54,954 nt of DNA from Gammaproteobacteria bacterium (GCA_028285655.1 JANQOT010000009.1:1-54954); one strand, 5' to 3'. Counted from the stretch's first letter, positions 1 to 30,572 are shown. Program-made: numbers and translations. Notes: generated by a model not told the origin, from the sequence alone.

Positions 1-20
1 GCGACTCCATCCATGGTACG
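1..20 (-). repeat. Truncated B-type structured repeat abutting tRNA-Met (cut by window edge)
   Basis: gcgactcca...tccatg...ggtacg matches both ends and the loop of the copy at 26778-26813, but the hairpin-1 arms are missing. Confidence 0.3.
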
Positions 21-96
21 GCTATGTAGCTCAGTTGGTTAGAGCACAGCATTCATAATGCTGGGGTCATTGGTTCAAGTCCAATCATAGCCACCA
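20..96 (+). tRNA. tRNA-Met (anticodon CAT), elongator type
   Basis: 77-nt cloverleaf GGCTATGTAGCTCAGTTGGTTAGAGCA...CATAGCCACCA with anticodon loop TTCATAA. Positions 1 and 72 pair as G-C, and the sequence is near-identical to E. coli elongator metT from memory, so it is not the initiator. CCA is encoded. Confidence 0.93.
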
Positions 97-163
97 CACT
101 TGCGCGCGGGTATTGCGCGCGAATCAAGTATGGCGTAGCCATTCCTTATTTTTTTAAAAAATC

Positions 164-222
164 AGTAATAGGTCAGGCAATACAAAAGTGCCTTAAATAA
201 ATATGTGGGCCTGACCTGGTAG
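164..222 (+). ncRNA. Candidate structured element, tRNA-trailer family, copy Met-1
   Basis: AGTAATAGGTCAGGC...(30-nt loop ending TGG)...GCCTGACCTGGTA. The stem is GGTCAGGC/GCCTGACC. Confidence 0.35.
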
Positions 223-271
223 TACACGCAAATTATTCATGGCGCAGCCATTCCTTATTGTTTTAGATCCC

Positions 272-330
272 AGTAATGGGTTGCATGTTGCAATTATAGT
301 TTTGTTCAGAACAATGGATGCAACCTGGCA
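272..330 (+). ncRNA. Candidate structured element, tRNA-trailer family, copy Met-2
   Basis: AGTAATGGGTTGCAT...(loop ending TGG)...ATGCAACCTGGCA. The stem GGTTGCAT/ATGCAACC is fully compensatory relative to copy Met-1. Confidence 0.35.
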
Positions 331-373
331 TTCCTGATTTTGCTTGAAACAGCAGTATTAGCTGTTGCATGAC

Positions 374-820
374 TTATAAATTCTTATACTTCACAAGAAT
401 TTCTTTTGCTTCCCAGTTTCTTTGCAACCAGATACTCAAATTAGCATGTAGCATGTGCCATCGGAAGGTACTGTCTGTTTTTACGTTAGTTGCTTTCATA
501 TGATGAATCGCAATCTCGGACGCCATCGCCGAAATACGCGTGTATGGATCGATATGCTTGTTTGACAAAACATTGTTGGAAATGGCAGCAAACAGCCAGG
601 TGTAATTCCAGTAGGGTGTAATTTTTCCCACCTTGTTTTTCGCCACAAATTTTTCAGCGGCTGCCCACTGCTGCGATAACTGTGAGTCAGTCACAATAGC
701 ATGTTGCGGTTTTGAAGGGAGCGTGTCCAGTAAAGACAAGGAGTAACTATAAACCAGCCAGGGTGCGGTAATTAATGATATAGCTATTGCAGAACAAAGA
801 ATAAGAACTGCTTTTTTCAT
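374..820 (-). CDS. Hypothetical membrane-anchored protein
   Basis: The track ORF 374..847 starts at TTG. The first ATG (820) gives MKKAVLILCSAIAISL, an N-terminal TM/signal anchor. No confident family; the C-terminal WLQRNWEAKEILVKYKN is only faintly GT51-like. Confidence 0.55.
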   Translation of the reverse strand: MKKAVLILCSAIAISLITAPWLVYSYSLSLLDTLPSKPQHAIVTDSQLSQQWAAAEKFVAKNKVGKITPYWNYTWLFAAISNNVLSNKHIDPYTRISAMASEIAIHHMKATNVKTDSTFRWHMLHANLSIWLQRNWEAKEILVKYKNL

Positions 821-916
821 GTAGTCAAGCGTACGCGTACTGTTCAAAAAGCGATTATCCGCTATCTGCTAAATAATCGATATATTTTAATGTCTTGTTT
901 AAACAGGTGACCCGGC

Positions 917-1975
917 TCATGCATTAGTGTCGTCCTGCTGATTGATTTTGTCACTACGCAGTCTGTCTCTGTATTTTCCTTTGGCATATTTTTGCAGGTC
1001 TTCTATTTTGTCGGTTTCGTCCAGAATCTCCCTGCCCAGCATAGTTTCAATCGCATCTTCCAGTGTAACGATTCCTGCCGTCTGGCCGTATTCGTCTTCA
1101 ACCAGAAACATATGTTCCCGTTTTTTGATAAACATATCCAAAAGTGGCTGCACTGGAAGACTTTCAGAAACACGGGTTATAGATTTGGCAAGAGTGTGTA
1201 ATTGCAAATCCGACTTTCCTTCTCTTTCTTTGAATAATAAATCCCGGTTGATTACCAGGCCAACCACATTGTCAGGATTATCCTTATATATCGGGATGCG
1301 CGTAAATTGTTGTGTCTCTTTGTATGACAGCGCCTCGCCTATAGTCGAATTGGCATCCAGGCAGTGCATGACTGAACGAGGCGTAAGGATTTCTTCTGTC
1401 TTGATTTCGCGTAATTTAAGTACATTGTTCAAATATTCATTCTCTTGGCCGATCAGCGAACCCATCTGGTGTCCTAATGAAGCCAACGCAATTATTTCTT
1501 CACGGGATACTTCCTGTGTTTTATCTTTTCTGAATGACTTGGTAATAAGTTCTGAAACTAATATCAGTGGATAAACCAGTTTAATCAGCCAAAAGATGAT
1601 ATTGGAGGCCGGAACAGCAAGTTGGCGCCAGTAAGTTGCACCGATCGTCTTGGGAATTATTTCAGAAAAATATAGGATTACCAGAGTTAATATCACTGCA
1701 ATTGCGGTTTCCCAACGTACACCAAAAATTTTCGTTGCTTGAGCGCCAACCCCGGCAGCCCCCATGGTATGTGCAAAAGTATTGAGTATTAATATGCTGG
1801 CAATCGACTGATCCAGGCGGTCTTTTACCCGGTATAACATTTTTCCTCTGTTGGGGTGTTTTGCACTGATGCTTTCAACATAACTGGGCGTTATAGACAA
1901 CAAGACAGCCTCTAATACAGAACATAAAAAAGATATTCCGATGGCGATAGCTAAATATGTAAAAAGCAAAGTCAT
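917..1975 (-). CDS. CNNM/DUF21-CBS family membrane protein (TlyC/CorB-like divalent-cation efflux)
   Basis: 352 aa. N-terminal multi-TM DUF21-type region followed by a CBS-pair region (ILTPRSVM...VGLV...EYGQTAGIVTLED). ATG start. Confidence 0.8.
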   Translation of the reverse strand: MTLLFTYLAIAIGISFLCSVLEAVLLSITPSYVESISAKHPNRGKMLYRVKDRLDQSIASILILNTFAHTMGAAGVGAQATKIFGVRWETAIAVILTLVILYFSEIIPKTIGATYWRQLAVPASNIIFWLIKLVYPLILVSELITKSFRKDKTQEVSREEIIALASLGHQMGSLIGQENEYLNNVLKLREIKTEEILTPRSVMHCLDANSTIGEALSYKETQQFTRIPIYKDNPDNVVGLVINRDLLFKEREGKSDLQLHTLAKSITRVSESLPVQPLLDMFIKKREHMFLVEDEYGQTAGIVTLEDAIETMLGREILDETDKIEDLQKYAKGKYRDRLRSDKINQQDDTNA

Positions 1976-2179
1976 GGCACAAAAAGTAACGTTTTTAACT
2001 GGTTAAAAACCAGAGATTGTCTAAGGCAAATTCATAGTTTGACATATTTTGAATTCGCAGTCTTGTTGTGAGTTAAGTCATATTATGATGTATCGACCGG
2101 GTTGGTGGCTAAAAAATGTTACGGTATACAAAGGGTGCAAAAAGTATAATTCCGGACCTGGATATTGTCTGTTTTCAGC

Positions 2180-2265
2180 CAATGAGCAGGAGGTGGCTAT
2201 ACATACAAGGATGCACGCAGGCATAGCGATGTGCGAATAAGAGCCTGAATCAGGGAAAACGCTAA
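2180..2265 (+). repeat. Degenerate B-type repeat(s), left edge of island 1
   Basis: GAGCAGGAGGTGGC and GCAC...GTGCGAATAAGAGCCTGAATCAGGG resemble the B consensus GAGCAC-loop-GTGCGAATGARAGTT-hairpin. Confidence 0.4.
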
Positions 2266-2332
2266 CCTAATGTATAGTGCAAGCTATGCAATGCAGTGAA
2301 CTTTAATTGCCGAAGTCTTGTCTTAAATGCGT

Positions 2333-2442
2333 GTGCGGGAGAGCACGGATGCTCCGAAGTTGCTACCCCTTTTAATAGGAGTGCAGTGCCAAGAAAATTC
2401 TCCCGCATACCTTGCGAGCTTATTTCTGAAATCAAGCGACCA
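2333..2442 (+). repeat. Degenerate B+A composite repeat 3' of the SnoaL-like cassette
   Basis: GAGCACGGATGCTCCGAAGTTGC is a B-like core. It is enclosed by the inverted repeat TGCGGGAGA (2334) / TCTCCCGCA (2399). AAGCGACCAC lies next to the stop codon at 2443. Confidence 0.4.
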
Positions 2443-2880
2443 CTAATTTTGTTTGATCATATCCATATGGCCAAGTTGCTTCATTGATGTGTAGTTATCC
2501 CACTCAACCCAGGCTTCTGCAATTGTCTCGTTTTTAATTCGATAAATAGCTAGATACTCTATATCCATATCTTTACACGATGCAGGATATGGCCCCATTT
2601 TCCCGAGCTGTGTGCCTTTAAACTGTTGGCGGGCTGCGACTTTATCACCCTCGGCGACTAAATCTAAAATTTTTTCCCTGAATTTCGGAAAAATGGATTC
2701 TTGCGTGCGTAAGTACTGTATTAAATCTCCCCGGCATTTAACAGCGGGTTCTCCTGCAGCAAAGCTATGTCTTGCGAAATCTTCTGCTACCATGTTGTCG
2801 AGCATATCCCAATCGCGCTTGTTAACAGCATTTATAAAATTCTGCACTAGCGCTTTGTTAGATTCATTATTGTCGTTCAT
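2443..2880 (-). CDS. SnoaL-like / predicted ester cyclase family protein
   Basis: 145 aa. LVQNFINAVNKRDWDMLDNMVAEDF...IAEAWVEWDNYTSMKQLG is typical of the NTF2-fold SnoaL/ester-cyclase family. ATG start. Confidence 0.75.
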   Translation of the reverse strand: MNDNNESNKALVQNFINAVNKRDWDMLDNMVAEDFARHSFAAGEPAVKCRGDLIQYLRTQESIFPKFREKILDLVAEGDKVAARQQFKGTQLGKMGPYPASCKDMDIEYLAIYRIKNETIAEAWVEWDNYTSMKQLGHMDMIKQN

Positions 2881-2924
2881 ATTTTCTATAAGTTACCTAT
2901 TCATTTTCTACTTACGACCAATTA

Positions 2925-3028
2925 GTGAGCACAAGGAGGTGCGAATGAGAGTTGCATCAGGGACGATGCTTCCGTTTAGAATTACTGCTCGCTTCAATGA
3001 CCGCTTTCGGGCCAAAAGCGGTCATTCG
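2925..3028 (+). repeat. B+A composite structured repeat (reference copy)
   Basis: Hairpin 1 is GCAC/AAGGAG/GTGC (2929-2942), followed by the linker GAATGAGAGTT. Hairpin 2 is GCATC/AGGGAC/GATGC (2954-2969). The A module is the perfect 12-bp palindrome AATGACCGCTTT-cgggcca-AAAGCGGTCATT (2996-3026). The stop codon of CDS 3022..3438 lies inside it. Confidence 0.8.
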
Positions 3029-3438
3029 TTTTCTTTAAATAATTCAACACAATGCATCACACACTCTTCACAAATTTGTGCGTTATCCCCTAGCCAAACT
3101 AGCCGACCAGCTTCTTTTTCAGAACACTTACAAAACTCACAGTAGCTATCTTCCTCAGTGCTTTCTATTCCTCGTTTCAGTTTTCTGGTAAAACGTGGAC
3201 TAGAGGCAACCTTTTCTTTTGATGGCGATATCCTTAATGAATCATCAAAATTAACAGATTCTTCAAGCCACTCTATGTATAGCAACCCAGGCTCTTTATC
3301 AGATATTCCAGATGCTCTAACTAGCGGCATTTCGTCTGAAACACCAAATGAAATATGAAGTTGTTTAAGTGTGCTAGGGCCAACAGTTGCTATTCTTTTT
3401 TCATTTAAATAAACATCGTAAAAACAATTTTTATCCAT
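3022..3438 (-). CDS. Hypothetical protein with C-terminal ClpX-type C4 zinc finger
   Basis: 138 aa. The C-terminal CEFCKCSEKEAGRLVWLGDNAQICEECVMHCVELF matches the ClpX N-terminal zinc-binding pattern (CxxC...CxxC). The N-terminal ~95 aa have no recognisable family. Confidence 0.65.
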   Translation of the reverse strand: MDKNCFYDVYLNEKRIATVGPSTLKQLHISFGVSDEMPLVRASGISDKEPGLLYIEWLEESVNFDDSLRISPSKEKVASSPRFTRKLKRGIESTEEDSYCEFCKCSEKEAGRLVWLGDNAQICEECVMHCVELFKENE

Positions 3439-3490
3439 AAATATTATCCTGGGATGCAGTACAGTAACTAGAATTATATGTTCGGTTTAC

Positions 3491-3510
3491 GGCCAATAGC
3501 GGTCATTCAG
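3491..3510 (+). repeat. A-module repeat (solo)
   Basis: GGCCAATAGCGGTCATTCAG lies 6 nt from the stop of CDS 3516..4934. Compare GGCCAAAAGCGGTCATTC at 3011, 24981 and 25471. Confidence 0.6.
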
Positions 3511-3515
3511 GATTA

Positions 3516-4934
3516 TTATCCGAAACGTCTTAGCCATTTGAATTTTGATAGTGTATACGGAGGGTATCGCAACGGTAAATCGCCAAACGTGGATTTTATT
3601 AAAACGGCTCTAGCATGACTAAATGTAATGAAACTATTTCTGCCATGGTAAGCGCCAACACCACTTTGACCGACACCTCCAAATGGTAGATCAGGTACAA
3701 CCATATGCATAAGTACATCGTTAATACAAACACCTCCCGAACTTGTCTCTGAAATTACATTGTTTTGAACTTCTTTATCTTTAGTGAATAGATATAATGC
3801 TAATGGCTTAGGCCGACTATTCACGAAACCAATTGCATCTTCGATGCCTGAAACCGATATTACAGGAAGAATAGGCCCAAAGATCTCTTCGCTCATAATT
3901 AGCGAATCAGTGGACACTTTGGTCAACACTGTAGGTTCGATATAGAGATCGGCTTCATCCGAGTGGCCACCACTCACAATTTCTCCACTGTCCATCAACC
4001 CGATGAGTCGTTCAAAATGTGCTTGATTGACTATCCTCGGATAATCAGGGCTTGTCTTCGGATCATTTCCATAAAAATCCGCCACTACCGACTTGATATG
4101 CTGCGTGAGATCATCAATTATTGATTCATGAGCCAGTACATAATCTGGAGCAACGCACGTCTGTCCAGCGTTGACAAATTTCCCCCATACGATTCGTTTA
4201 GCTGCTACACGTATATCGGCATCACTATTCACAATACACGGACTTTTGCCACCTAGTTCAAGTGTGACTGGCGTAAGGTGCTTAGCTGCGGCAGCCATTA
4301 CAATTTTGCCCACACGAGGGCTGCCTGTGAAGAAGATATGGTCAAAGCGTTGTTCGAGTAAATTGCTGGCTACATCTGCCCCTCCCTGTATAACTCTGAT
4401 GGCATCTGAATCCATATATTCAGGGATAATCTCCGCGAGTAATGATGAGGTGTTTGGCGTGAGTTCTGACGGTTTTATGAGCACGCAATTACCGGCTGCA
4501 ATAGCGCCAATTAGTGGCGATACAATCAACATAAAGGGGTAGTTCCATGGCGCCATAATTAATACGACACCAAGCGGTTCATATATAATCTTGCTTTTGC
4601 CTGGCTGATTGTCTATTGGTGTCGAGACAATTTCTGGTTTCATCCAGTTTTTTAAATGTTTCAAAGCATGATTGATCTCATTAACGCACTCACCTGTCTC
4701 CGCTATGAATGATTCAAAGTTTGATTTTCTGAGATCCGCTCTAAGAGCAGCGAAGATTGCTTCCTCCTTTTCTATCGTCATTGCTTTTAATGACTTGAGT
4801 TGATCGATGCGCCATTTATAAGGGCGCGTCTTACGACTTTTAAACGTCGTATGCAAATTTGCTACTGTTCTTGCGAAATTGGGTTGAGACATGTCATTTA
4901 TTCTCACTTTTGAAGCAACTGAGTTTCTATACAT
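3516..4934 (-). CDS. NAD(P)+-dependent aldehyde dehydrogenase (class 3-like)
   Basis: 472 aa. ALDH motifs are present: ELGGKSP, the catalytic region GQTCVAPDY, and EEIFGPILP. The alternative ATG at 4892 (MSQPNF) would give 458 aa. Confidence 0.88.
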   Translation of the reverse strand: MYRNSVASKVRINDMSQPNFARTVANLHTTFKSRKTRPYKWRIDQLKSLKAMTIEKEEAIFAALRADLRKSNFESFIAETGECVNEINHALKHLKNWMKPEIVSTPIDNQPGKSKIIYEPLGVVLIMAPWNYPFMLIVSPLIGAIAAGNCVLIKPSELTPNTSSLLAEIIPEYMDSDAIRVIQGGADVASNLLEQRFDHIFFTGSPRVGKIVMAAAAKHLTPVTLELGGKSPCIVNSDADIRVAAKRIVWGKFVNAGQTCVAPDYVLAHESIIDDLTQHIKSVVADFYGNDPKTSPDYPRIVNQAHFERLIGLMDSGEIVSGGHSDEADLYIEPTVLTKVSTDSLIMSEEIFGPILPVISVSGIEDAIGFVNSRPKPLALYLFTKDKEVQNNVISETSSGGVCINDVLMHMVVPDLPFGGVGQSGVGAYHGRNSFITFSHARAVLIKSTFGDLPLRYPPYTLSKFKWLRRFG

Positions 4935-5034
4935 GACCTAACGATTCGGTGGTCTGAGGTAAATTATTCAAATAAAGTTTTTTAATTATGACTTACATCA
5001 ATTTATTACTTAAATGGGTTACACAGAGATTCAG

Positions 5035-5183
5035 CGAATATGAGCGCGTCTTCCCTGACGCGACTCCAATTCGCACTTCCCTGTGCTCAGGTACGAAAGC
5101 GGACCTTCAATGAATATGAGCGCGTCTTCCCTGACGCGACTCCAATTCGCACTTCCCTGTGCTCTGGCACGAAAGCGGTTATG
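5035..5183 (-). repeat. Two tandem B-type repeats in opposite orientation to those at 2925 and 24899
   Basis: A 53-nt stretch, gaatatgagcgcgtcttccctgacgcgactccaattcgcacttccctgtgctc, is present identically at 5036-5088 and 5112-5164 (period 76). Each copy is followed by ACGAAAGCGG. Confidence 0.85.
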
Positions 5184-5237
5184 CTGAATAATGTAGATCA
5201 GTATATTATAGAATGCTAATACACTATATTGTTTAAT

Positions 5238-5266
5238 ACCCGCTTTCGTCCCAAAGAAAACATTCG
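5238..5266. repeat. Degenerate A-module
   Basis: ACCCGCTTTCGTCCCAAAGAAAACATTCG resembles GACCGCTTTCGGGCCAAAAGCGGTCATTCG (2999-3028). CCCGCTTTCG is also the inverted complement of CGAAAGCGG at 5170. Confidence 0.4.
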
Positions 5267-5302
5267 ATTATGATAATAATATTCAGCCCGGAGTAGATAC
5301 GC

Positions 5303-6349
5303 ATGAACTACTATATTTATCTACCACTGTTTTATTTTTTACTAGTTAACAACTTTTTAATGGCGGGGGAAAATATTTCATATATGAACTCTGAGAAAGA
5401 GTTAATAGTGCTAGCGGCGCCTTTATCGGGTGATTTATATTACGCCAATCAGGTTGATGCTATATTTAATTTTCATATTGAGTATGTAAATCAAATAAAA
5501 GATCGCGATAATGTTTTAATTTTTGTAGATGAAAACACTTATGATGACTATGTCGAAAAAGTCGGAGAACAATACGTGGTGATAGCTCCGATGTTAGATA
5601 TTTGGATGCGTGATTTTAGTCTTTCTAACGTAATAGCGCCAGTCATGTTTCGATATACAGCTGCTGGTCAAGGGGGAGGTGATAGAGGACAGAAATATGC
5701 GGATACAGTCCAGGAACAGCTAGCTACAATCATAGAAGAGGCCGAACTAGAATTTAAGGAAACAAAATTACTAAACGATGGGGGAAATTTCGTTGATGAC
5801 TATCATGGGAATGTAGTAATAAGTACAAAATTTTTACGCGACAATAATATTTCTGAGAAACAAGCACGATCAGAGTTACAAAAGTTGATCAATATTAAAC
5901 ATGTGGCGTTTATAAATTCTGATGAGCAAGGCGGGCTAGAGCATGCAGACGGTGTGGTGGCATTTGTTGATAAGAATACAGTAATAATAAACTCATATGG
6001 CGAAGAAGGCTATTTAGCAAATTTACGTAGAGACTTGCAAAGAGGATTACCTGATGTGGTAATTCACGAAATTATAACTCCATACGACGATAGCGAAATT
6101 CACGACCGGCGGTTTAGCTCTGCTTGCGGGCTTTACACAAATGCACTTGTAACTCCTAAAAGAGTATATCTTCCACAGTTCGATATACCTCAGGATAAGA
6201 TTGCTATTCAACAAGTACAGCAAGCAACTACTCGGGAAGTAGTACCTGTTCCGTCTCACTATGTTTGCTCGATGGGTGGCGGTGTACGATGTATGTCTTG
6301 GCAATTAAGAGGACAAAATGCCAGTAAGCTTTTGGAATATTTTAATTAA
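5303..6349 (+). CDS. Agmatine deiminase / peptidyl-arginine deiminase (PAD_porph) family protein, predicted secreted
   Basis: 348 aa. Contains DIWMRD, GGNF, EHADG and the C-terminal catalytic-Cys motif GGGVRCMSWQ. The N-terminus is hydrophobic. GGAG lies 9 nt upstream of the ATG. Confidence 0.82.
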   Translation: MNYYIYLPLFYFLLVNNFLMAGENISYMNSEKELIVLAAPLSGDLYYANQVDAIFNFHIEYVNQIKDRDNVLIFVDENTYDDYVEKVGEQYVVIAPMLDIWMRDFSLSNVIAPVMFRYTAAGQGGGDRGQKYADTVQEQLATIIEEAELEFKETKLLNDGGNFVDDYHGNVVISTKFLRDNNISEKQARSELQKLINIKHVAFINSDEQGGLEHADGVVAFVDKNTVIINSYGEEGYLANLRRDLQRGLPDVVIHEIITPYDDSEIHDRRFSSACGLYTNALVTPKRVYLPQFDIPQDKIAIQQVQQATTREVVPVPSHYVCSMGGGVRCMSWQLRGQNASKLLEYFN

Positions 6350-6368
6350 GCCGACAGTTAAACTTTTT

Positions 6369-6462
6369 AATGACCGCTTTTGTTCGAAACCAGACATTAG
6401 TTCGCTTGCTATGCGGGCGCCATCCTTGGCGCCAACTTTCATTCGCGTATCCTTACGCTCAC
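6369..6462 (-). repeat. A+B composite repeat 3' of the plus-strand cassette
   Basis: AATGACCGCTTTTG starts 20 nt after the stop at 6349. The B part reads (reverse complement) GCGT/AAGGAT/ACGC, GAATGAAAGTT, GGCGCC/AAGGAT/GGCGCC. Both stems differ from the other copies but still pair. Confidence 0.75.
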
Positions 6463-6480
6463 GTGCTTGCACACATCTAT

Positions 6481-6535
6481 GAGTGCGAATTCAGGCGCTT
6501 GAAACGGGTCGGGAAGTGACCTTGCGAACGAGTAA
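6481..6535 (+). repeat. Partial B-type repeat
   Basis: GAGTGCGAATTCAGG...GGGTCGGGAAGTGACC retains the GTGCGAAT core and a GGGAAG-loop hairpin. It lies 3' of minus-strand CDS 6559..6792. Confidence 0.4.
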
Positions 6536-6558
6536 AAATAGTACAGTGAAATTTCTGT

Positions 6559-6792
6559 CTAACTTTGATTTTTGTAGTTTTGCAGGTATTCCAGAAACTC
6601 TTCTTCGACAATTTCGGTTTCTTCGACTGAAATATTATTTAGTCGGCGCTCAGGCATTTTGCGACGGTCCTTTTTGATCACCAATTCGCCCAGTTCCTTG
6701 CTTGAATCGCTTAACGTGCTGATAAAGTCTCTGCGGTCGCTTGTTGTCCGTCGCTCGTCCAGATCTTGATCTGTGTCCGCTTTTTCGCTCAA
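6559..6792 (-). CDS. Small Arg-rich hypothetical protein with ERRxxxDRR motif
   Basis: The track ORF 6559..6813 starts at TTG. An internal TTG at 6792 is preceded by AAGGAG with a 7-nt spacer. The protein shares GE(L/I)...RR...(P/D)(E/D)RR...EEF...Y with CDS 29145..29360. Confidence 0.45.
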   Translation of the reverse strand: MSEKADTDQDLDERRTTSDRRDFISTLSDSSKELGELVIKKDRRKMPERRLNNISVEETEIVEEEFLEYLQNYKNQS

Positions 6793-7064
6793 CGGTCTGC
6801 TCCTTTCTCTCAAAATTCTGAAGATTGTGTAGCCGGAGGGTTATCCCTCTTTAATTATTTTCTTAAGTATTACTTTTTTAAGTTTTTGATTATGTGATGC
6901 GATTGGCAGTTAGGTTTTTCGTCGCCAAGGGCTGTTCTGCATTAAATCCGGGAGCCCGGCCGTTAATAAGCGGTAGCGAAATAATCTAAACAGACTTGTT
7001 TTCTGTAACTTACCGAATCTTGTTGCAGTGTTACGGCAGGAGAATATAAATAATGATAAAACCA

Positions 7065-7094
7065 TAAAAAAACCCGCTTTGGTCAAAAGCGGGT
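7065..7094 (-). terminator. Rho-independent terminator of the cytochrome c lipoprotein gene
   Basis: ACCCGCTTT-ggtca-AAAGCGGGT hairpin, followed on the minus strand by a 7-T run, about 20 nt after the stop at 7116. Confidence 0.8.
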
Positions 7095-7115
7095 TTTAGT
7101 AGGTGTAATTGTTAG

Positions 7116-25470: not shown

Positions 25471-25490
25471 GGCCAAAAGCGGTCATTCAA
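25471..25490 (+). repeat. A-module repeat (solo)
   Basis: GGCCAAAAGCGGTCATTCAA lies 30 nt from the stop of CDS 25521..26654. It occupies the same position in the island as 3491-3510. Confidence 0.6.
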
Positions 25491-25520
25491 GTAATAACGA
25501 AAGTGATTACTTAGACGACG

Positions 25521-26654
25521 CTAAAAATATTTTCTTGCTAAATTCTTACATGTGCCATCAATTCCTGGGAACATAGTGGCTTCATTAATTCCCATTAAAT
25601 CTAACTCACGTAAGGCCTCATCACACATATTTGCATTTAAGTCATAAATTTTTAAAATTTTATTGCCGCTCTTCTGTTCAATATATTTTATTTCAAACTC
25701 AATGTCATGGATATTAGCGAAACTGACAACTGATTGTTGAGGCAATAATCTAGGATTATCAAATCCAGGCAGTTCATAAAACCAAAGCTGTTGTTCTGGA
25801 TGTAATATTACCGTGCTATTGAAATCAATTCTGCTCCAATTTGATCTATTAAACTCAAATATCCGCACATAGTTATCTCTGCTTGGTCGATCGGTCACAG
25901 TATATTTTGGATTTTGTTTTCTAGACCAGAACGAAAAAAATGCTGCTATAAACGGTGACTCAGTCCAATCAAGCAATGGAGTTGGGTGGCCGTGATGTTG
26001 TGCTAATGACAAAAATGAACTTAATTGTGTTGCATTATCCAAATCGTAAGTTCTGGGAAGCTGTGGGCTTAGGTATCGATGTAATCTTCGAAGGTCTTCA
26101 TCTAAAAACCTTACCAAATCGTTTCTACCTGTCCTATGAAACGTAGTATTTAGTTTGTACTTATTGTCCGCTACTCCTCGAAAAACTAACGCCGAATTTT
26201 CAAGTTTGGAAGATAGAATCTCAGATTTATATTCAGACCAATTTTCATATTTCGAATCCGGCTCATAGTTCTTAAAATTAAAATCTTTTCTAAGGCTAAA
26301 AGTACCGTTTGTATCGACATCGCTTCGCCAAGTACCATCTAGATATAATTGGCTATTCTCTTCTCGAATATTTCCTTCAAAATTTATAATATTAGGTACT
26401 GAATATCCTGTGGGATATTGGATTTCAGGGTACAGCTCAATAGGGTTATTTGCTTGTGCATCTAAGCGGTCGTCTTCAAAGTTAAATCTAAACCCATAGT
26501 ATGCGTACCTAGCTTCTGGAGATCCCTCTGCAAGGAATAGTCTTCCAACACTTGAATTATCCCGATCAATTGCAAGTGCAGTTACTCCATTGTTAGCGTT
26601 ATCTGGGGGACTTGCAAAACGACCCCACCATAGTCCGTTTACTTTATTTGGCAT
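25521..26654 (-). CDS. FRG domain-containing protein
   Basis: 377 aa. LVFRGVADNKYKLNTTFHR and LAQHHGHPTPLLDWTESPFIAAFF match the FRG-domain signature. The N-terminal ~150 aa are unassigned. The gene is very AT-rich. Confidence 0.75.
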   Translation of the reverse strand: MPNKVNGLWWGRFASPPDNANNGVTALAIDRDNSSVGRLFLAEGSPEARYAYYGFRFNFEDDRLDAQANNPIELYPEIQYPTGYSVPNIINFEGNIREENSQLYLDGTWRSDVDTNGTFSLRKDFNFKNYEPDSKYENWSEYKSEILSSKLENSALVFRGVADNKYKLNTTFHRTGRNDLVRFLDEDLRRLHRYLSPQLPRTYDLDNATQLSSFLSLAQHHGHPTPLLDWTESPFIAAFFSFWSRKQNPKYTVTDRPSRDNYVRIFEFNRSNWSRIDFNSTVILHPEQQLWFYELPGFDNPRLLPQQSVVSFANIHDIEFEIKYIEQKSGNKILKIYDLNANMCDEALRELDLMGINEATMFPGIDGTCKNLARKYF

Positions 26655-26719
26655 TTTAAATTGAATATATTGAAACTCTTTTTCTTATCTACCTACTTTA
26701 ACACGTACTATTCTAAATA

Positions 26720-26883
26720 AATGTCTGCTATGGGTCGTTAGCAGACATTCATTGAATATGAACGCGTCCTCCCTGACGCGACTCCAATTCGCACGTCCAT
26801 GTGCTCTGGTACGAAAGCGGGCATTCGCAATTATGCTCGTGTCCTTCATGACACGACTTCAATTCGCATATTCCCATGCTCAG
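26720..26883 (-). repeat. Hairpin plus two tandem B-type repeats in opposite orientation, right edge of island 2
   Basis: AATGTCTGC-tatgggtcgtta-GCAGACATT is the hairpin. B copy 26754-26828 ends in ACGAAAGCGGGCATTCGC. B copy 26829-26883 has stems GCAT/ATGC and TCGTGTC/GACACGA. Confidence 0.8.
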
Positions 26884-27031
26884 ATCAAAAACTGATTTTT
26901 CTATTTTATCCTGAAATTGGTTTCAATATGCAATATTTGCTCAGAATTAACGAGCATGGGGAGGGATTGTCTATGGAAGAGAGGGTAAACCGAGCACCAA
27001 ACTAAATTCAGTGCTCGGTTTAGACGAGAGT

Positions 27032-28726
27032 TTATTCAGCGCCTTCTCCGTCGATCTGGAACAGGGCGCCCAGGTTGATGCTGCCATGGACGTCCGGCGA
27101 TTGAATGTTGGTCAGGTCGGCAGGGTTGCCGCGATTGAGGTTGGAAGCGGTATCGTCCGGCGGGAATAGCACCAGCGATTCCAGAAATGCCTGAATATTC
27201 TGGCGGCCTTCTTCGCCCAGGCGTTCGTAGGCCACACGCGATTCGGTGGCTTCGCCGCCGTGTCGACGAATAACGGCATCCAGGTTAATGCTGCGACCGT
27301 CATGTCCATAGGGGGCGGTAGAGCCGACACCCCACAGCGGTTCGGTAACAAATTCAGTGACTACGGTACCGTCAAACTCGCGTTCGTGAAATGCCGGCCC
27401 TAAATCGTGCCGCTTTAAATCGGAATAAAAGTTGCGCACTACGAATTGTTCGCCGTTAGGAAGCAATTGCGGATAGGCGTCGCCGTCGTCCACTTCGCTA
27501 AACTGCGTGCTGGCAGTGGCAAATAGATTGTTGAAAATTCCCTGTGCCGGGTCGTAGGCGGTTTCGACATCGGCAATACGACGATCGCTTTGAATAGTCA
27601 TTCTTGGCGTATGACAAGTCGTGCAACCAATGTCCGCCATCAGACGTTTGCCCGTGCGGGCGGCCGCCGTGACTTTGTAGCGTCCGGGCTTGAAGTAATT
27701 AAGCAGATAAAATTCCAGGTGGTCGATAACTGCAGTATCGATTTCATTGCTAACGCCATCATTGTCGGGGTCAGCGTTAACGTCGCAGGTCGGCGGCCGC
27801 TCGAACTCATCCTGTGCAGGATCGTAATTAAAGCCGCTGGGGCTGGTCATGGCCTGTGGATTATCCGGGTCGGTTACGGCGCATAAGATCGGATCGACCG
27901 CCTGTAAACCCATTTCGTCTTTAAATGCACCGATGACGAACTCACGAATGGAAACCGTACCGCCCTGATGAAAAAACGGACGCACACGCAAATCTGCGTC
28001 CACGCCTTCCACTTGTGAGGTATCGATTTCACCATTGGGGCAGGCAGTAATAAAACCAAACGAAGTACGCTTGGCGCGCAACGGCGTGGTAACACAACGG
28101 TTACGTCGTTCGGCTAATGCCAATGCGCGATCGCGGCGTGCCCGTAGTCGTTGTGTCATCTCGTCGGCCAGTTGTTCAACAATACCCAGGCCAAACAAAT
28201 GCGGTGCGTCGCGACTGTCGGGGCGCGTATTCACATCGCCGCCAAAACCGGCAGATCCGCGCGGTCGACCATGGCAGGCTGCGCAGCTATCGGTTAAGCC
28301 GGCACCCAATGCTCGGTTTTGGGTGATGTCGCCGGTGGAATCAAGATTTACGCGCGGGCCGTTGCCTTCTGCGATCGAAAATTTACGTTGAAACAGTTGC
28401 CGGCCACGTCGAATGGAACGCGCCGGGTCGCGCTTTATTAAATAAACAGCCGAGCCGGGCGTATTAACGTCGCCGTGTCCGGCGCCGATCTGGTCAACCA
28501 GACTTTTACTGATACATCCGCCGGGAGCGTTAATTAATAAATTTTCATTGACCTTGTCGCAGGGAACCAGTTCGGCAAAATTGGGCTGCGGGTAAAAATA
28601 AAGTGCCAGACAGGTAACAAGAAAAAACGGGTAAAAATGATGTCGAACGTTTCGTTTAATATGGGTCTGATGCGTGAACAAGAGCATATTGGCTCTTGCT
28701 TGAATTAATTTCTCCTGTAGCGTCAT
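27032..28726 (-). CDS. Di-haem cytochrome c oxidoreductase, DUF1111 family
   Basis: 564 aa. Two CxxCH motifs (CAACHG, CTTCH). SCAACHGRPRGSAGFGGDV is a typical DUF1111 context. N-terminal TM/signal. Confidence 0.8.
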   Translation of the reverse strand: MTLQEKLIQARANMLLFTHQTHIKRNVRHHFYPFFLVTCLALYFYPQPNFAELVPCDKVNENLLINAPGGCISKSLVDQIGAGHGDVNTPGSAVYLIKRDPARSIRRGRQLFQRKFSIAEGNGPRVNLDSTGDITQNRALGAGLTDSCAACHGRPRGSAGFGGDVNTRPDSRDAPHLFGLGIVEQLADEMTQRLRARRDRALALAERRNRCVTTPLRAKRTSFGFITACPNGEIDTSQVEGVDADLRVRPFFHQGGTVSIREFVIGAFKDEMGLQAVDPILCAVTDPDNPQAMTSPSGFNYDPAQDEFERPPTCDVNADPDNDGVSNEIDTAVIDHLEFYLLNYFKPGRYKVTAAARTGKRLMADIGCTTCHTPRMTIQSDRRIADVETAYDPAQGIFNNLFATASTQFSEVDDGDAYPQLLPNGEQFVVRNFYSDLKRHDLGPAFHEREFDGTVVTEFVTEPLWGVGSTAPYGHDGRSINLDAVIRRHGGEATESRVAYERLGEEGRQNIQAFLESLVLFPPDDTASNLNRGNPADLTNIQSPDVHGSINLGALFQIDGEGAE

Positions 28727-29144
28727 TTCTAATCCTCGAACTTTGTTTTATGGGAGTAGGTAGGTTCATTCTTTATTCCTTGTTGTCTGTTGACTTCCCA
28801 AATTGTCGAGGAGCGATGAACGATAGAGGAATTTACTGTGCCTCATGCTCCGCAAAAGTATGTTGTCTCTTTCCATCTCTTTGCAGGAAACTAAAGTGTG
28901 AATTCCGTCACAAAAATATTTCAGTAAGCGCGATTAACGGTCGAATTCGGTGATAAACGGCTGAATTGTGCGGTCTGATGGCAAACAGTGTTGAATTCCT
29001 AACCGCATGAAGAGCGAGCGAAAAACTATGTTTAAAGTAATGTGATCAAGGTTTATGTCTGAAATAACCTAGCGTGAATATTTTCACATTATATAAAGAC
29101 TACTTTCGTACACTGGTAACCAGAATTTTCTAACGGAATTTCTT

Positions 29145-29360
29145 ATGTCGGCAAAGAAACCTTTTAAAACTCGAGCAGAAAAAAACCGCCGTAGTGAAAA
29201 AATGCGACGCTTTCCCATGCAAATCGAAAACGGCGAGATCCTTTTGCGTGAACGACGCCTGAATCCGGATCGCAGGCGCCCCGGTTTGCAAACGCAAGAG
29301 TTAAAAGTTTCTTCGGAAGAATTTGCGACATTATTTGAAGCGTATCGACAGCACGGGTAA
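29145..29360 (+). CDS. Small Arg-rich hypothetical protein with RRxxPDRRR motif
   Basis: 71 aa, ATG start. Paralogue-like to CDS 6559..6792 (GEILLRERRLNPDRRR...KVSSEEF...Y). Confidence 0.5.
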   Translation: MSAKKPFKTRAEKNRRSEKMRRFPMQIENGEILLRERRLNPDRRRPGLQTQELKVSSEEFATLFEAYRQHG

Positions 29361-29546
29361 TTGCCGCGGCAGGTAATTGTCTTTTTCAATATTAAAATTT
29401 ATTTTATTCCGCGCACGCGCAATTCACCCGGAATACCTTGCGCGTCTGTGTAAATAAATTTCTAAAAGAAGTATCAATTGCGTCCTGCTTTGACAGGAGT
29501 AAAATCGAGGAGTTTATTCAGTCAATTTAGTCAAAAAGCGGACACA

Positions 29547-29945
29547 ATGAAAACGAAAGACCGCCTTCCATTAGCGCTATTTACACTGCGCATCAGTGTG
29601 TTTTTAGTCATGTTGATGTGGACGCTGGATAAACTGGTCGACCCGAATCACGCTGCGCGTGTGTTTGAAAAATTTTATCAAATTTCCGGGCTTGGCATTA
29701 TTCATTTTTATATTCTGGGAATCGCCGAACTGATCCTGCTGTTAGCGTTTTTAGTCGGATACAGAAAAACGCTTTCTTATGGGCTGGTGCTGATATTTCA
29801 TGCCGTATCGACATTTTCCAGTTATCAACAATATCTGGATCCATTTACTTATCCCAATCTGTTGTTTTTTGCTGCGTGGCCAATGCTCGCCGCGTGTTTT
29901 GTGTTGTATTATCTGCGTGAATTCGATACCAAGTTGGTCGTCTGA
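29547..29945 (+). CDS. Hypothetical 4-TM membrane protein
   Basis: The track start 29478 is TTG. The ATG at 29547 gives MKTKDRLPLALFTLRISVFLVML. The stop overlaps the next start (TGATG). Confidence 0.6.
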   Translation: MKTKDRLPLALFTLRISVFLVMLMWTLDKLVDPNHAARVFEKFYQISGLGIIHFYILGIAELILLLAFLVGYRKTLSYGLVLIFHAVSTFSSYQQYLDPFTYPNLLFFAAWPMLAACFVLYYLREFDTKLVV

Positions 29946-30559
29946 TGGCAACGTCTTCCGCTGTATTTGATTCAACCGGTGCAGTAAAACTTCGTGAAGG
30001 CCGCGTATCCGACTGTAAAACGATCGCGGAACTGATTAACGCATCGGCAGAAGGCGCTGCTGAATATTTATTTGCGGATATAAGTAAATCGATCACGCCG
30101 ATCGAATATCTGGCAGGTTTGCTGGAGCAGGAAGTTTACTATTCTTATGCCAATACAGTGGTCGCAGAAGTTGAAGGCAATGTTGTGGGAATGGCGCTTA
30201 GTTTTCCGTCCGAGGGATTAGTGTGCCCGAAAATGCAGAATCAGTATTCTGCGCAGCAGTTACTTTATATTCAAAGTTTTGTCGAACACAAAATCGCCGG
30301 GAGCTGGCATCTGGATGCCTTATGCGTGTTGCCGAACTTCAGAAATTCCGGTATTGGCGGCAGATTGCTGGCCGCGGTAAAAACAAGGGCCCGGGGATAT
30401 AATTTTACAAGTGTCGGCGTATTCGTATTTGCCAGCAACGAGGGAGCGTTTAGATTTTACCGGCGGCACGGCTTTGATCATCAGGCCGATGTTGACGGCC
30501 ACGCACAGGAATTTTTACGCGCTAAAAATGGTTTGCGTCTGATGGAATGCAAACTTTAG
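29945..30559 (+). CDS. GNAT family N-acetyltransferase
   Basis: 204 aa. LCVLPNFRNSGIGGRLL acetyl-CoA motif. Translationally coupled to the upstream membrane protein. Confidence 0.8.
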   Translation: MATSSAVFDSTGAVKLREGRVSDCKTIAELINASAEGAAEYLFADISKSITPIEYLAGLLEQEVYYSYANTVVAEVEGNVVGMALSFPSEGLVCPKMQNQYSAQQLLYIQSFVEHKIAGSWHLDALCVLPNFRNSGIGGRLLAAVKTRARGYNFTSVGVFVFASNEGAFRFYRRHGFDHQADVDGHAQEFLRAKNGLRLMECKL

Positions 30560-30572
30560 GATTGCGGTAGCG

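Follow-up and report, generated by a model that had tools for sequence, protein, structure and literature searches.

A 54,954-nucleotide stretch of the genome of a Gammaproteobacteria bacterium (GCA_028285655.1 JANQOT010000009.1:1-54954; the whole stretch is called the window here) carries four copies of a hairpin of 58–59 nt, which we call E, as the distal part of tandem units of 80–165 nt behind its tRNA-Met and tRNA-Leu genes. E is a real hairpin family kept by compensatory change, and the units that hold it are insertion/deletion polymorphisms among close relatives. We propose, with a probability of roughly 45%, that E is the recognition structure of a non-autonomous cassette, used in its folded, single-stranded form by a trans-acting enzyme that would join it at GGT within the loops of hairpins located at the tRNA 3' end. 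Tandem repeats in tRNA trailers that carry tRNA 3' ends are already known, as are small hairpin repeats; what is new is a discrete covarying 59-nt hairpin common to different tRNA loci together with clear signs of recent mobility at the DNA level.

A covarying hairpin in tandem units behind two tRNA genes

The pattern AGTAATRGGT-N5-(25–40)-TGG-N5-ACCTGGYA matches the 55 kb window four times, always on the + strand (164–221, 272–330, 19795–19853 and 19958–20016), and matches none of 100 shuffled sequences. Two of the copies lie behind each of the sole tRNA genes of the window, tRNA-Met(CAT) at 20–96 and tRNA-Leu(CAG) at 19625–19711 (ARAGORN, Rfam). With a further copy from a relative (locus L023), all five known copies share the orientation of the tRNA and lie less than 400 nt downstream of it. 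The stem consists of 9 bp, R-GGT-N5 pairing with N5'-ACC-T, and across the five copies every one of its 45 cells is paired. Five of the pairs are altered on both sides and one alternates between A-U and G-U, values that 0 of 500 shuffles reach; when the 3' partner is slid by 1–3 columns, only 20–38% of the stem pairs. The loop is constant in length and variable in sequence. The ends of the element (AGTAAT and ACCTGG) are sharp, and resemblance between copies of different loci stops there. E is clearly under selection for structure.

As RNA, the + strand of E folds with −18.6 to −23 kcal/mol and the − strand with −13.8 to −16.2 kcal/mol; as single-stranded DNA, E reaches −6 to −10 kcal/mol. The closing pair of the second Met copy is G-U, which is tolerated in the + strand only, and this pair and the lower + strand energies both fit a folded + strand. 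E does not resemble an intrinsic terminator, as its loop is 30–31 nt long and no T-run follows the stem, a description that the neighbouring small hairpins do fit.

An earlier note, made from the sequence of the window alone, had described four copies, which the pattern scan bears out with the correction that the first ends at 221 (58 nt) and not at 222, and three compensatory versions of the inner stem (CAGGC/GCCTG, TGCAT/ATGCA and CGCAC/GTGCG), which are as it claimed. The loop-closing TGG and the 3' flank that it called invariant are not so in the L023 copy, where they read CGG and ACCTGGTT. Its claim that the element is confined to tRNA 3' flanks holds across the window and 138 kb from relatives (193 kb): a covariance model built from the five copies (four from the window, one from L023) and run with filters off found no other copy there, the best non-member scoring 11.8 bits against 72–89 for members. 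The note had also recognised no named RNA family, and Rfam indeed gives tRNAs only, both at gathering score over the whole window and at E ≤ 10 over 1–500 and 19550–20300. Exact-pattern scans of public collections returned 2 matches in GTDB genomes, 5 in JGI metagenomes and 11 + 100 in IMG/VR; since none has complementary stems (at most 3 of 5 positions), these are chance matches. The scan pattern was too strict, demanding TGG and exact flanks from which the L023 copy deviates, so absence from these collections is not proven. A blastn search with the Leu array found no match among phages and plasmids.

The features of the two arrays, all on the + strand, are listed by position in the window.

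20..96, +, tRNA-Met (CAT), elongator type (ARAGORN; Rfam RF00005, 74.6 bits)
97..156, +, native tRNA-Met trailer, called module X (sequence; homologous trailers in relatives)
102–120, +, hairpin H1 of the Met trailer: GCGCGC, loop GGGTATT, GCGCGC
130–142, +, small hairpin H2 of the Met trailer, ATGGCGTAGCCAT, then a T-run (scored terminator-like)
164..221, +, E copy Met1, stem AGGTCAGGC/GCCTGACCT, 30-nt loop (pattern; covariance model 71.6 bits)
218..265, +, direct repeat (79%) of 109–156: 3' half of H1, second H2 (239–251), T-run (repeat search; terminator-like site)
272..330, +, E copy Met2, stem GGGTTGCAT/ATGCAACCT, G-U closing pair (pattern; covariance model 73 bits)
329..341, +, third copy of the 13-nt direct repeat CATTCCTKATTKT, at the distal edge of the ~189 nt missing from the empty site (repeat search; alignment with L030)
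19576..19604, +, promoter-like site of tRNA-Leu, TTGACA-17-TACATT (promoter scan)
19625..19711, +, tRNA-Leu (CAG) (ARAGORN, Rfam)
19712..19794, +, unit 1 spacer: terminator-type hairpin A (19712–19740), hairpin B, AT-rich stretch of ~21 nt
19795..19853, +, E copy Leu1, stem AGGTCGCAC/GTGCGACCT (pattern; covariance model 88.2 bits)
19854..19874, +, copy of the tRNA-Leu 3' end, T-loop to CCA, TCAATCCTCTCCTGGGCACCA (repeat search)
19875..19957, +, unit 2 spacer (hairpins A' and B', AT-rich stretch), orthologous to the single unit of L022 and L023
19958..20016, +, E copy Leu2, 57/59 identical to Leu1 (pattern; covariance model 88.9 bits)
20017..20037, +, second copy of the tRNA-Leu 3' end, TCAATCCTCTCCTGGGCACAA (repeat search)
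20038..20100, +, partial third unit (hairpins A'' and B'', T-run), without E (repeat search)

E is only a part of these larger tandem units with direct repeats, among them the final 21 nt of tRNA-Leu in two additional copies, an organization that the earlier note had missed. Each unit carries the sequence of its own insertion point, which in the Leu array is the tRNA segment from T-loop to CCA and in the Met array the T-rich tail of the trailer. Behind tRNA-Leu the period is 163 nt, and a unit runs from the last 21 nt of the tRNA through terminator-type hairpin A, hairpin B and about 20 nt of AT-rich sequence to E. Behind tRNA-Met the period is 108–109 nt, and the first E is followed by a second copy of the trailer that starts in the H1 loop; the Met copies lack a tRNA fragment, there being no second copy of the tRNA-Met 3' end. 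The 13-nt repeat of this array occurs three times (140–152, 249–261 and 329–341), the last time directly after Met2, and the longer repeat at 218–265 begins within the GGTA that ends Met1.

Every copy of E runs at its 3' end, ACCTGG(T), straight into sequence that is already present upstream, at the start of the unit. Three independent junctions of this kind are present, two of them with GGT microhomology in a hairpin loop (a slash marks the junction): the T-loop GAGGT/TCAAG against CCTGGT/TCAAG at the Leu locus, and the H1 loop GCGGGT/ATTGCG against CCTGGT/AGTACA at the Met locus. E and its spacers have separate histories. The two E copies of the Leu array are 96.6% identical with spacers at 62%, and the Met array has spacers 72–79% identical with E copies at 59%. 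Taken with the adjoining tRNA fragment, E is the best-conserved part of the Leu units (96% vs 62% in the spacers).

Some local features of the arrays may be recorded here. An exact 13-nt tandem duplication, TCGTGTTTTTACT twice, directly follows the partial third Leu unit (20095–20120). Hairpins A and A' extend into imperfect inverted repeats that reach the 3' end of the tRNA or tRNA fragment (19705–19746: 21 nt, 86% complementary; 19855–19922: 33 nt, 79%), and many of the mismatches in the A' repeat, C-A when read on the + strand, would become G-U on the − strand. Folding of the 163-nt unit predicts a long-range helix between spacer and tRNA fragment, but this helix is weak and unit 1 does not keep it intact. 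Repeats had hinted at a degenerate third Met copy at about 352–436; this is native sequence that is present at the empty site of relative L030 and into which the 3' end of a real gene extends.

Filled and empty sites in close relatives

RNase R, encoded next to tRNA-Leu, has metagenomic relatives at 82–94% identity, its best named matches being those of Thioalkalivibrio at ~60%. We compared the window with six orthologous rnr/tRNA-Leu loci (L008, L009, L010, L022, L023 and L028); a base-by-base comparison of five loci (the window, L008, L009, L022 and L023) showed 100% identity of the tRNA-Leu gene. The sequences of the relatives derive from ENA and Logan assemblies (ERZ893782, ERZ893895, ERZ893784, ERZ26696514, ERZ23491505, ERZ25073763, SRR23272297 and SRR23272272). 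E is present in L022 (RNase R 94% identical to that of the window) and L023 (90%) and absent from L008 (93%), L009 (88%), L028 (86%) and L010 (82%), so that the distribution of the cassette is patchy and does not follow relatedness. Indeed, L022 and L008 are each other's closest relatives by rnr (85% at the nucleotide level), and the former has E and the latter does not.

The cleanest filled and empty pair is provided by L023 and L009. In L023 a single unit stands behind tRNA-Leu, and after it come a 25-nt exact repeat of the tRNA 3' end (GGTTCAAGTCCTCTCCTGGGCACCA) and a trailer beginning CACATGCGACTGGGTATTAGTCGC; in L009 the same trailer follows tRNA-Leu directly. At the tRNA-Met locus, the corresponding region of the contig that carries L008 (L030) holds the native trailer only, and its alignment with the window leaves ~189 extra nt in the window, which contain both Met copies of E and are bounded by the CATTCCTKATTKT repeat. 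This contig is empty at both tRNA loci and the window is filled at both. The neighbours of the CNNM gene in two further loci (L024 and L025) include no tRNA and are uninformative.

The two relatives with filled sites also speak to exchange. L022 and L023 have 77.5% identity over the first kb of rnr and 80% over the promoter region, but their unit spacers agree at 82 of 83 positions and the first 23 nt of E at 23 of 23; the single spacer difference shows that these are two alleles and not one assembled sequence. The units look horizontally exchanged. Because the cassettes are gained and lost, are shared across diverged flanks, contain an E with a history separate from that of its spacers and have sharp ends, they behave as moving or exchanged DNA and not as a fixed part of a tRNA operon.

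At position 1, the contig of L022 ends inside E, and those of L026 and L027 end inside tRNA-Leu. These ends look like assembly breaks caused by repeats, so more arrays may be hidden in the three genomes. The region downstream of tRNA-Leu (20100–30560) is a hot spot of gene content, with ~10 kb of accessory genes in the window (DUF2470, DUF2314, glyoxalase, polyketide cyclase, cytochrome b561, GNAT, adhesin E, an FRG-domain protein and a di-haem oxidoreductase) and wholly different genes in L008, L009, L010 and L028, with no integrase present. A second variable region adjoins tRNA-Met (window 1–7100 vs L030 9230–10830): L030 has ~1.6 kb between a cytochrome c gene and tRNA-Met, with a 77-residue open reading frame (ORF) and an ORF157 homologue, and the window has in its place ~7 kb with CNNM, SnoaL, a ClpX-type zinc-finger protein, an aldehyde dehydrogenase and a PAD_porph protein.

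Module X is itself found in the relatives. It follows tRNA-Met in the window (97–156) and in L030 (10542–10470, −), and tRNA-Leu in L009 (9782–9725, −) and L023 (417–360, −), always in the layout CAC-W-TGCG, a 6-bp stem around the loop GGGTATT (in L030 GGCTATT), then AAATCAA, a small hairpin and finally ATTC(C)TT with a T-run. Its first stem varies with full compensation (GCGCGC/GCGCGC vs GCGACT/AGTCGC), and it probably serves the tRNA genes of this lineage as their native module for processing or termination. In the Leu-type E, the arms with their flanks, GTAATAGGTCGCAC and GTGCGACCTGGTAT (19795–19809 and 19839–19855), resemble in permuted order the two halves of the native H1 of tRNA-Leu, TGCGACTGGGTAT and GTATTAGTCGCA (L009 9779–9757, −), as if this E were an H1 turned inside out. 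The Met copies show no such resemblance to their own H1, and the likeness may be due to chance.

A proposed mobile cassette and its alternatives

In the model that we favour, a small non-coding repeat cassette with E as its structured core would lodge in tRNA 3' flanks, co-oriented with the tRNA, and form short tandem arrays. The cassette would consist of a copy of the insertion point, one or more terminator-like hairpins with an AT-rich stretch of ~20 nt, and E, whose last place means that its ACCTGG(T) end always abuts the second copy of the target sequence. A recombinase or nuclease encoded elsewhere in the genome would recognise folded E, presumably by contacting the closing pairs RGGT/ACCT and the flanks AGTAAT and GG, and would join the cassette at GGT within loops (GAGGT/TCAAGT in the tRNA T-loop, GGGT/ATT in the loop of the trailer hairpin). 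A conserved stem base and conserved flanks with a variable inner stem and loop are the pattern of a hairpin recognised by protein, as in integron attC sites and REPINs, and not that of a base-pairing small RNA. A more specific version, which we consider unlikely, is that these are a class of miniature cassette so far undescribed, with a folded-hairpin site of ~59 nt and a terminator-bearing leader, inserted into the T-loop or the first trailer hairpin by a hairpin-specific recombinase or an HUH-type nuclease. Such insertion would regenerate the tRNA and stack cassettes in the manner of an integron, without cargo genes and with the tRNA gene as docking site.

Several points weigh against a mobile cassette. 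Pfam scans of the ORFs of the window found housekeeping and accessory genes and no integrase, recombinase, transposase or reverse transcriptase. No candidate enzyme emerged, and no excised form or circular junction was seen. An insertion here is indistinguishable from a deletion between direct repeats. The repeated target segments measure 13, ~24 and ~48 nt, unlike the fixed target duplication of a transposase. The near-identity of L022 and L023 could reflect homologous recombination of a larger tRNA-anchored segment and not mobility of the cassette, a possibility that arises because the L022 contig ends inside E. The known copies amount to five, with three stem types, from one uncultured gammaproteobacterial lineage. 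Finally, a purely RNA-level function of E is possible.

The strongest alternative takes up this last point and treats the array as a trailer RNA comparable to RtT of Escherichia coli. On this account the array would be read through from the tRNA and processed into units, the copies of the tRNA 3' end serving as processing signals and the hairpin binding a protein or blocking a nuclease, and ordinary recombination would suffice without a mobility enzyme. The layout is that of the E. coli tyrT-tyrV locus (L029, NC_000913.3 1286300–1287800), where tandem trailer repeats of 178 nt each end with AATCCTTCCCCCACCACCA, a T-loop-to-CCA piece of tRNA-Tyr, and the CCA of the first such pseudo-tRNA is also the exact end point of the annotated rttR RNA. 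Every copy of E is co-oriented with its tRNA, the G-U pair and the stronger fold both belong to the + strand, the E copies and tRNA fragments of the Leu array are conserved at 96% against 62% for the spacers, and the only sigma-70-like promoter nearby (in the Leu region) belongs to the tRNA. A precedent exists as well, in that small RNAs from read-through between the dual terminators of stable-RNA operons are documented (rrA/rrB/rrF; PMC8144298).

Other observations fit this account poorly. One or two terminator-like hairpins with T-runs stand before every E, and the Met copies lack the tRNA 3' fragment. Since the element is missing from both loci in close relatives, E is not a needed processing signal, and a loop of constant length and variable sequence combined with differing stems is unusual for a trans-acting RNA. 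With cassettes 99% identical between genomes whose flanks are 78% identical, recent DNA exchange is needed in any case. We therefore regard a trailer RNA without mobility as possible and rather less probable than the mobile cassette, and the two are not mutually exclusive: read-through of the tRNA terminator would transcribe a mobile E too, which may then have an additional RtT-like role.

The earlier note had suggested that E may be an independently transcribed small RNA. Such a gene would have its promoter in the AT-rich stretch, start near AGTAAT and stop at the next hairpin with a T-run. The short hairpin and T-run that the note reported upstream of each copy are real, and the hairpin ends 19–21 nt before E in all five copies, an interval of constant length and AT-rich composition. 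TAAAAT stands 2 nt before Leu2 and AATTAT before Leu1, and a hairpin with a T-run follows Met1, Leu1 and Leu2. Against this, the A/T-rich hexamer that the note described before each copy is inconsistent (TAAAAAAT, TTAGAT, AATTAT/TATAGA and TAAAAT), with no good candidate in L023, where no hexamer has both A2 and T6. A promoter scan found no sigma-70-like site before any E: it returned none at all for the Met region, and for the Leu region the promoter of the tRNA alone. No −35/−10 pair accompanies the hexamers. Neither a promoter nor a terminator of its own is thus seen for E throughout, terminator-like hairpins following some copies only and Met2 being without a separate one, and terminator-like hairpins also lie upstream. 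The single-stranded and loop parts, which would hold the seed, are not conserved. The suggestion has become improbable. A sigma-54 site read from the sequence in ACCTGGCATTCCTGATTTTGC was rejected for wrong spacing and occurrence in one copy only.

It is less probable still that E descends from decayed tandem tRNA duplicates, the 5' two-thirds having drifted into a hairpin and the 3' end having been kept by gene conversion. E (59 nt) and the tRNA fragment (21–25 nt) together approach the length of tRNA-Leu (87 nt), and a weak colinear likeness can be seen between the Leu copies and tRNA-Leu, for example TAGTCTTGTTAAGAG vs TAGTCTTCTTTTGAAGG. In E. coli such decay is evident: the structured part of each 178-nt tyrT repeat aligns along the whole, or nearly the whole, of tRNA-Tyr (score 42 vs 20.6 ± 3.5 for shuffles) and is a decayed pseudo-tRNA. 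Local alignment of E with its own tRNA, however, is not significant (p ~0.08–0.8), and the tRNA covariance model (RF00005), run at a threshold as loose as E ≤ 10, has no match on E. What follows the Met copies is trailer sequence and not the tRNA-Met 3' end. Moreover, flanks and closing pairs are common to the Met- and Leu-linked copies, which relates the copies to one another and not each to its own tRNA.

A classical miniature inverted-repeat transposable element (MITE) or REP-type dispersed repeat that lies near tRNA genes by chance would also be short, non-coding and variably present with inverted arms, but is in practice refuted by the present data, as the arms differ with full compensation where transposase-binding terminal repeats would be conserved, the flanking repeats (13, ~24 and ~48 nt) are no fixed-length target duplication, the covariance model finds no copy in other intergenic regions, be it in the window or in the relatives, a GTAG head is missing and only one orientation relative to the tRNA occurs. 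The earlier note had named a MITE inserted at random sites as one of the cases that would refute it; the evidence has shifted towards a mobile repeat, not towards a classical MITE at random sites.

A few further candidates were examined and dropped. The loops have no complementary match of at least 12 nt to tRNAs, the window or the relatives that would suggest guides or antisense RNAs, no small ORF is conserved across units on either strand as a type I toxin would require, and a type III antitoxin array is unlikely because no toxN-like gene lies downstream. attC core sites, an IS608-type TCAA end (contributed by the T-loop wherever it occurs), an IHF site and, in the Leu loop, a boxA-like motif each occur in one copy type only.

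tRNA genes are classic docking sites for mobile DNA, and the tandem repeats with tRNA 3' ends behind E. coli tyrT have been known for decades with no accepted origin or function. Here a tyrT-like layout is caught in a dynamic state, with filled and empty sites in close relatives and a cassette that is nearly unchanged across diverged genomes. If E is a recombination site, it would define a very small mobile element specific to tRNA flanks and offer a mechanism for the origin of RtT-type repeats; if it acts as RNA, it would be a new family of trailer-derived RNAs. Either way, it affects the annotation of tRNA 3' flanks and the assembly of metagenomes, where the contigs of three relatives break at the tRNA-Leu locus.

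Comparison with known systems

The 3'ETS-leuZ is a small RNA from a tRNA 3' external transcribed spacer. Like it and rrA/rrB/rrF (PMC8144298), E lies downstream of a stable-RNA gene and behind its first terminator, and its expression would need read-through. These RNAs are conserved, single-copy and have defined partners, whereas E is variable in stem and loop, tandem and variable in presence.

REP sequences and REPINs are short non-autonomous hairpin repeats mobilised by RAYT transposases; they have expanded in some lineages and depend on a single-copy enzyme encoded elsewhere. E resembles them as a short hairpin repeat with conserved ends, preserved spacing and a stem kept by compensatory change. 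REPs, which have a GTAG head and small loops, are spread over many intergenic regions in either orientation and reach tens to hundreds of copies; E, by contrast, is found only behind tRNA genes, in one orientation, without GTAG and with a 30-nt loop. In 193 kb, no copy lies outside tRNA trailers, and E does not belong to this group.

Integron attC sites ('59-base elements') are ~57–60 nt long upwards, lie at the 3' edges of their units and are used as a folded single strand, with the base and flanks of the hairpin conserved and the inner stem varying with compensation. E falls in the same ~57–60 nt size class, lies at the 3' edge of units in a tandem array and shows the same conserved base and flanks and compensating inner stem. 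It is nonetheless no attC site: it ends with AGTAATR and ACCTGGY and lacks the core sites RYYYAAC and GTTRRRY, its 9-bp stem with a 30-nt loop differs from an almost fully paired, bulged hairpin, its units carry no gene, no intI or attI was seen (Pfam finding no integrase in the window), and its border repeats are far longer than 6–7 nt.

The att-flanked elements of tRNA genes include the integrase-less cis-mobilizable elements (CIMEs), whose concept covers tandem arrays formed by 'accretion'. As in these, the direct repeat of the tRNA 3' end associated with E starts in the T-loop, an intact tRNA is regenerated proximally, and the units form tandem arrays of patchy presence with no recombinase inside. 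Direct repeats of the tRNA 3' end bounding an insert, with an empty site in relatives, are indeed found here, L023 having the exact 25-nt repeat and L009 the empty site with the same distal trailer. Unlike CIMEs, the E unit has ~140 nt of cargo and not kilobases, and the Met-linked units lie in the trailer and not in the tRNA. The repeats differ from att sites in measuring 13–48 nt at the three junctions, and the conserved part is a hairpin with covarying arms and not a set of double-stranded arm sites. The use of different targets at the two loci, the T-loop of tRNA-Leu and the trailer of tRNA-Met, speaks against an integrase with a single site.

The closest known analogue is the set of tyrT/RtT repeats of E. 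coli. RtT has been linked to the processing of the tyrT transcript and possibly to the stringent response, both as suggestions and with its mode of action unknown (bioRxiv 10.1101/2024.07.17.603846). The RtT model (RF00391) served as a positive control in the E. coli locus, where it gives four matches of 133–138 bits and also matches once between tyrT and tyrV; in the window it gives none at gathering score (45 bits), and none at E ≤ 10 in 1–500 and 19550–20300. Like the RtT/tyrT repeats, E forms tandem non-coding units in a tRNA 3' trailer, co-oriented with the tRNA, and at the tRNA-Leu locus the structured segment is followed by a T-loop-to-CCA copy. Unlike them, it has no similarity to RtT in sequence or covariance model and is not tRNA-like, one family occurs at two different tRNAs with Met copies that carry no tRNA fragment, and its cassettes are polymorphic and look exchanged between close relatives. 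The two systems have their layout in common and are not homologous.

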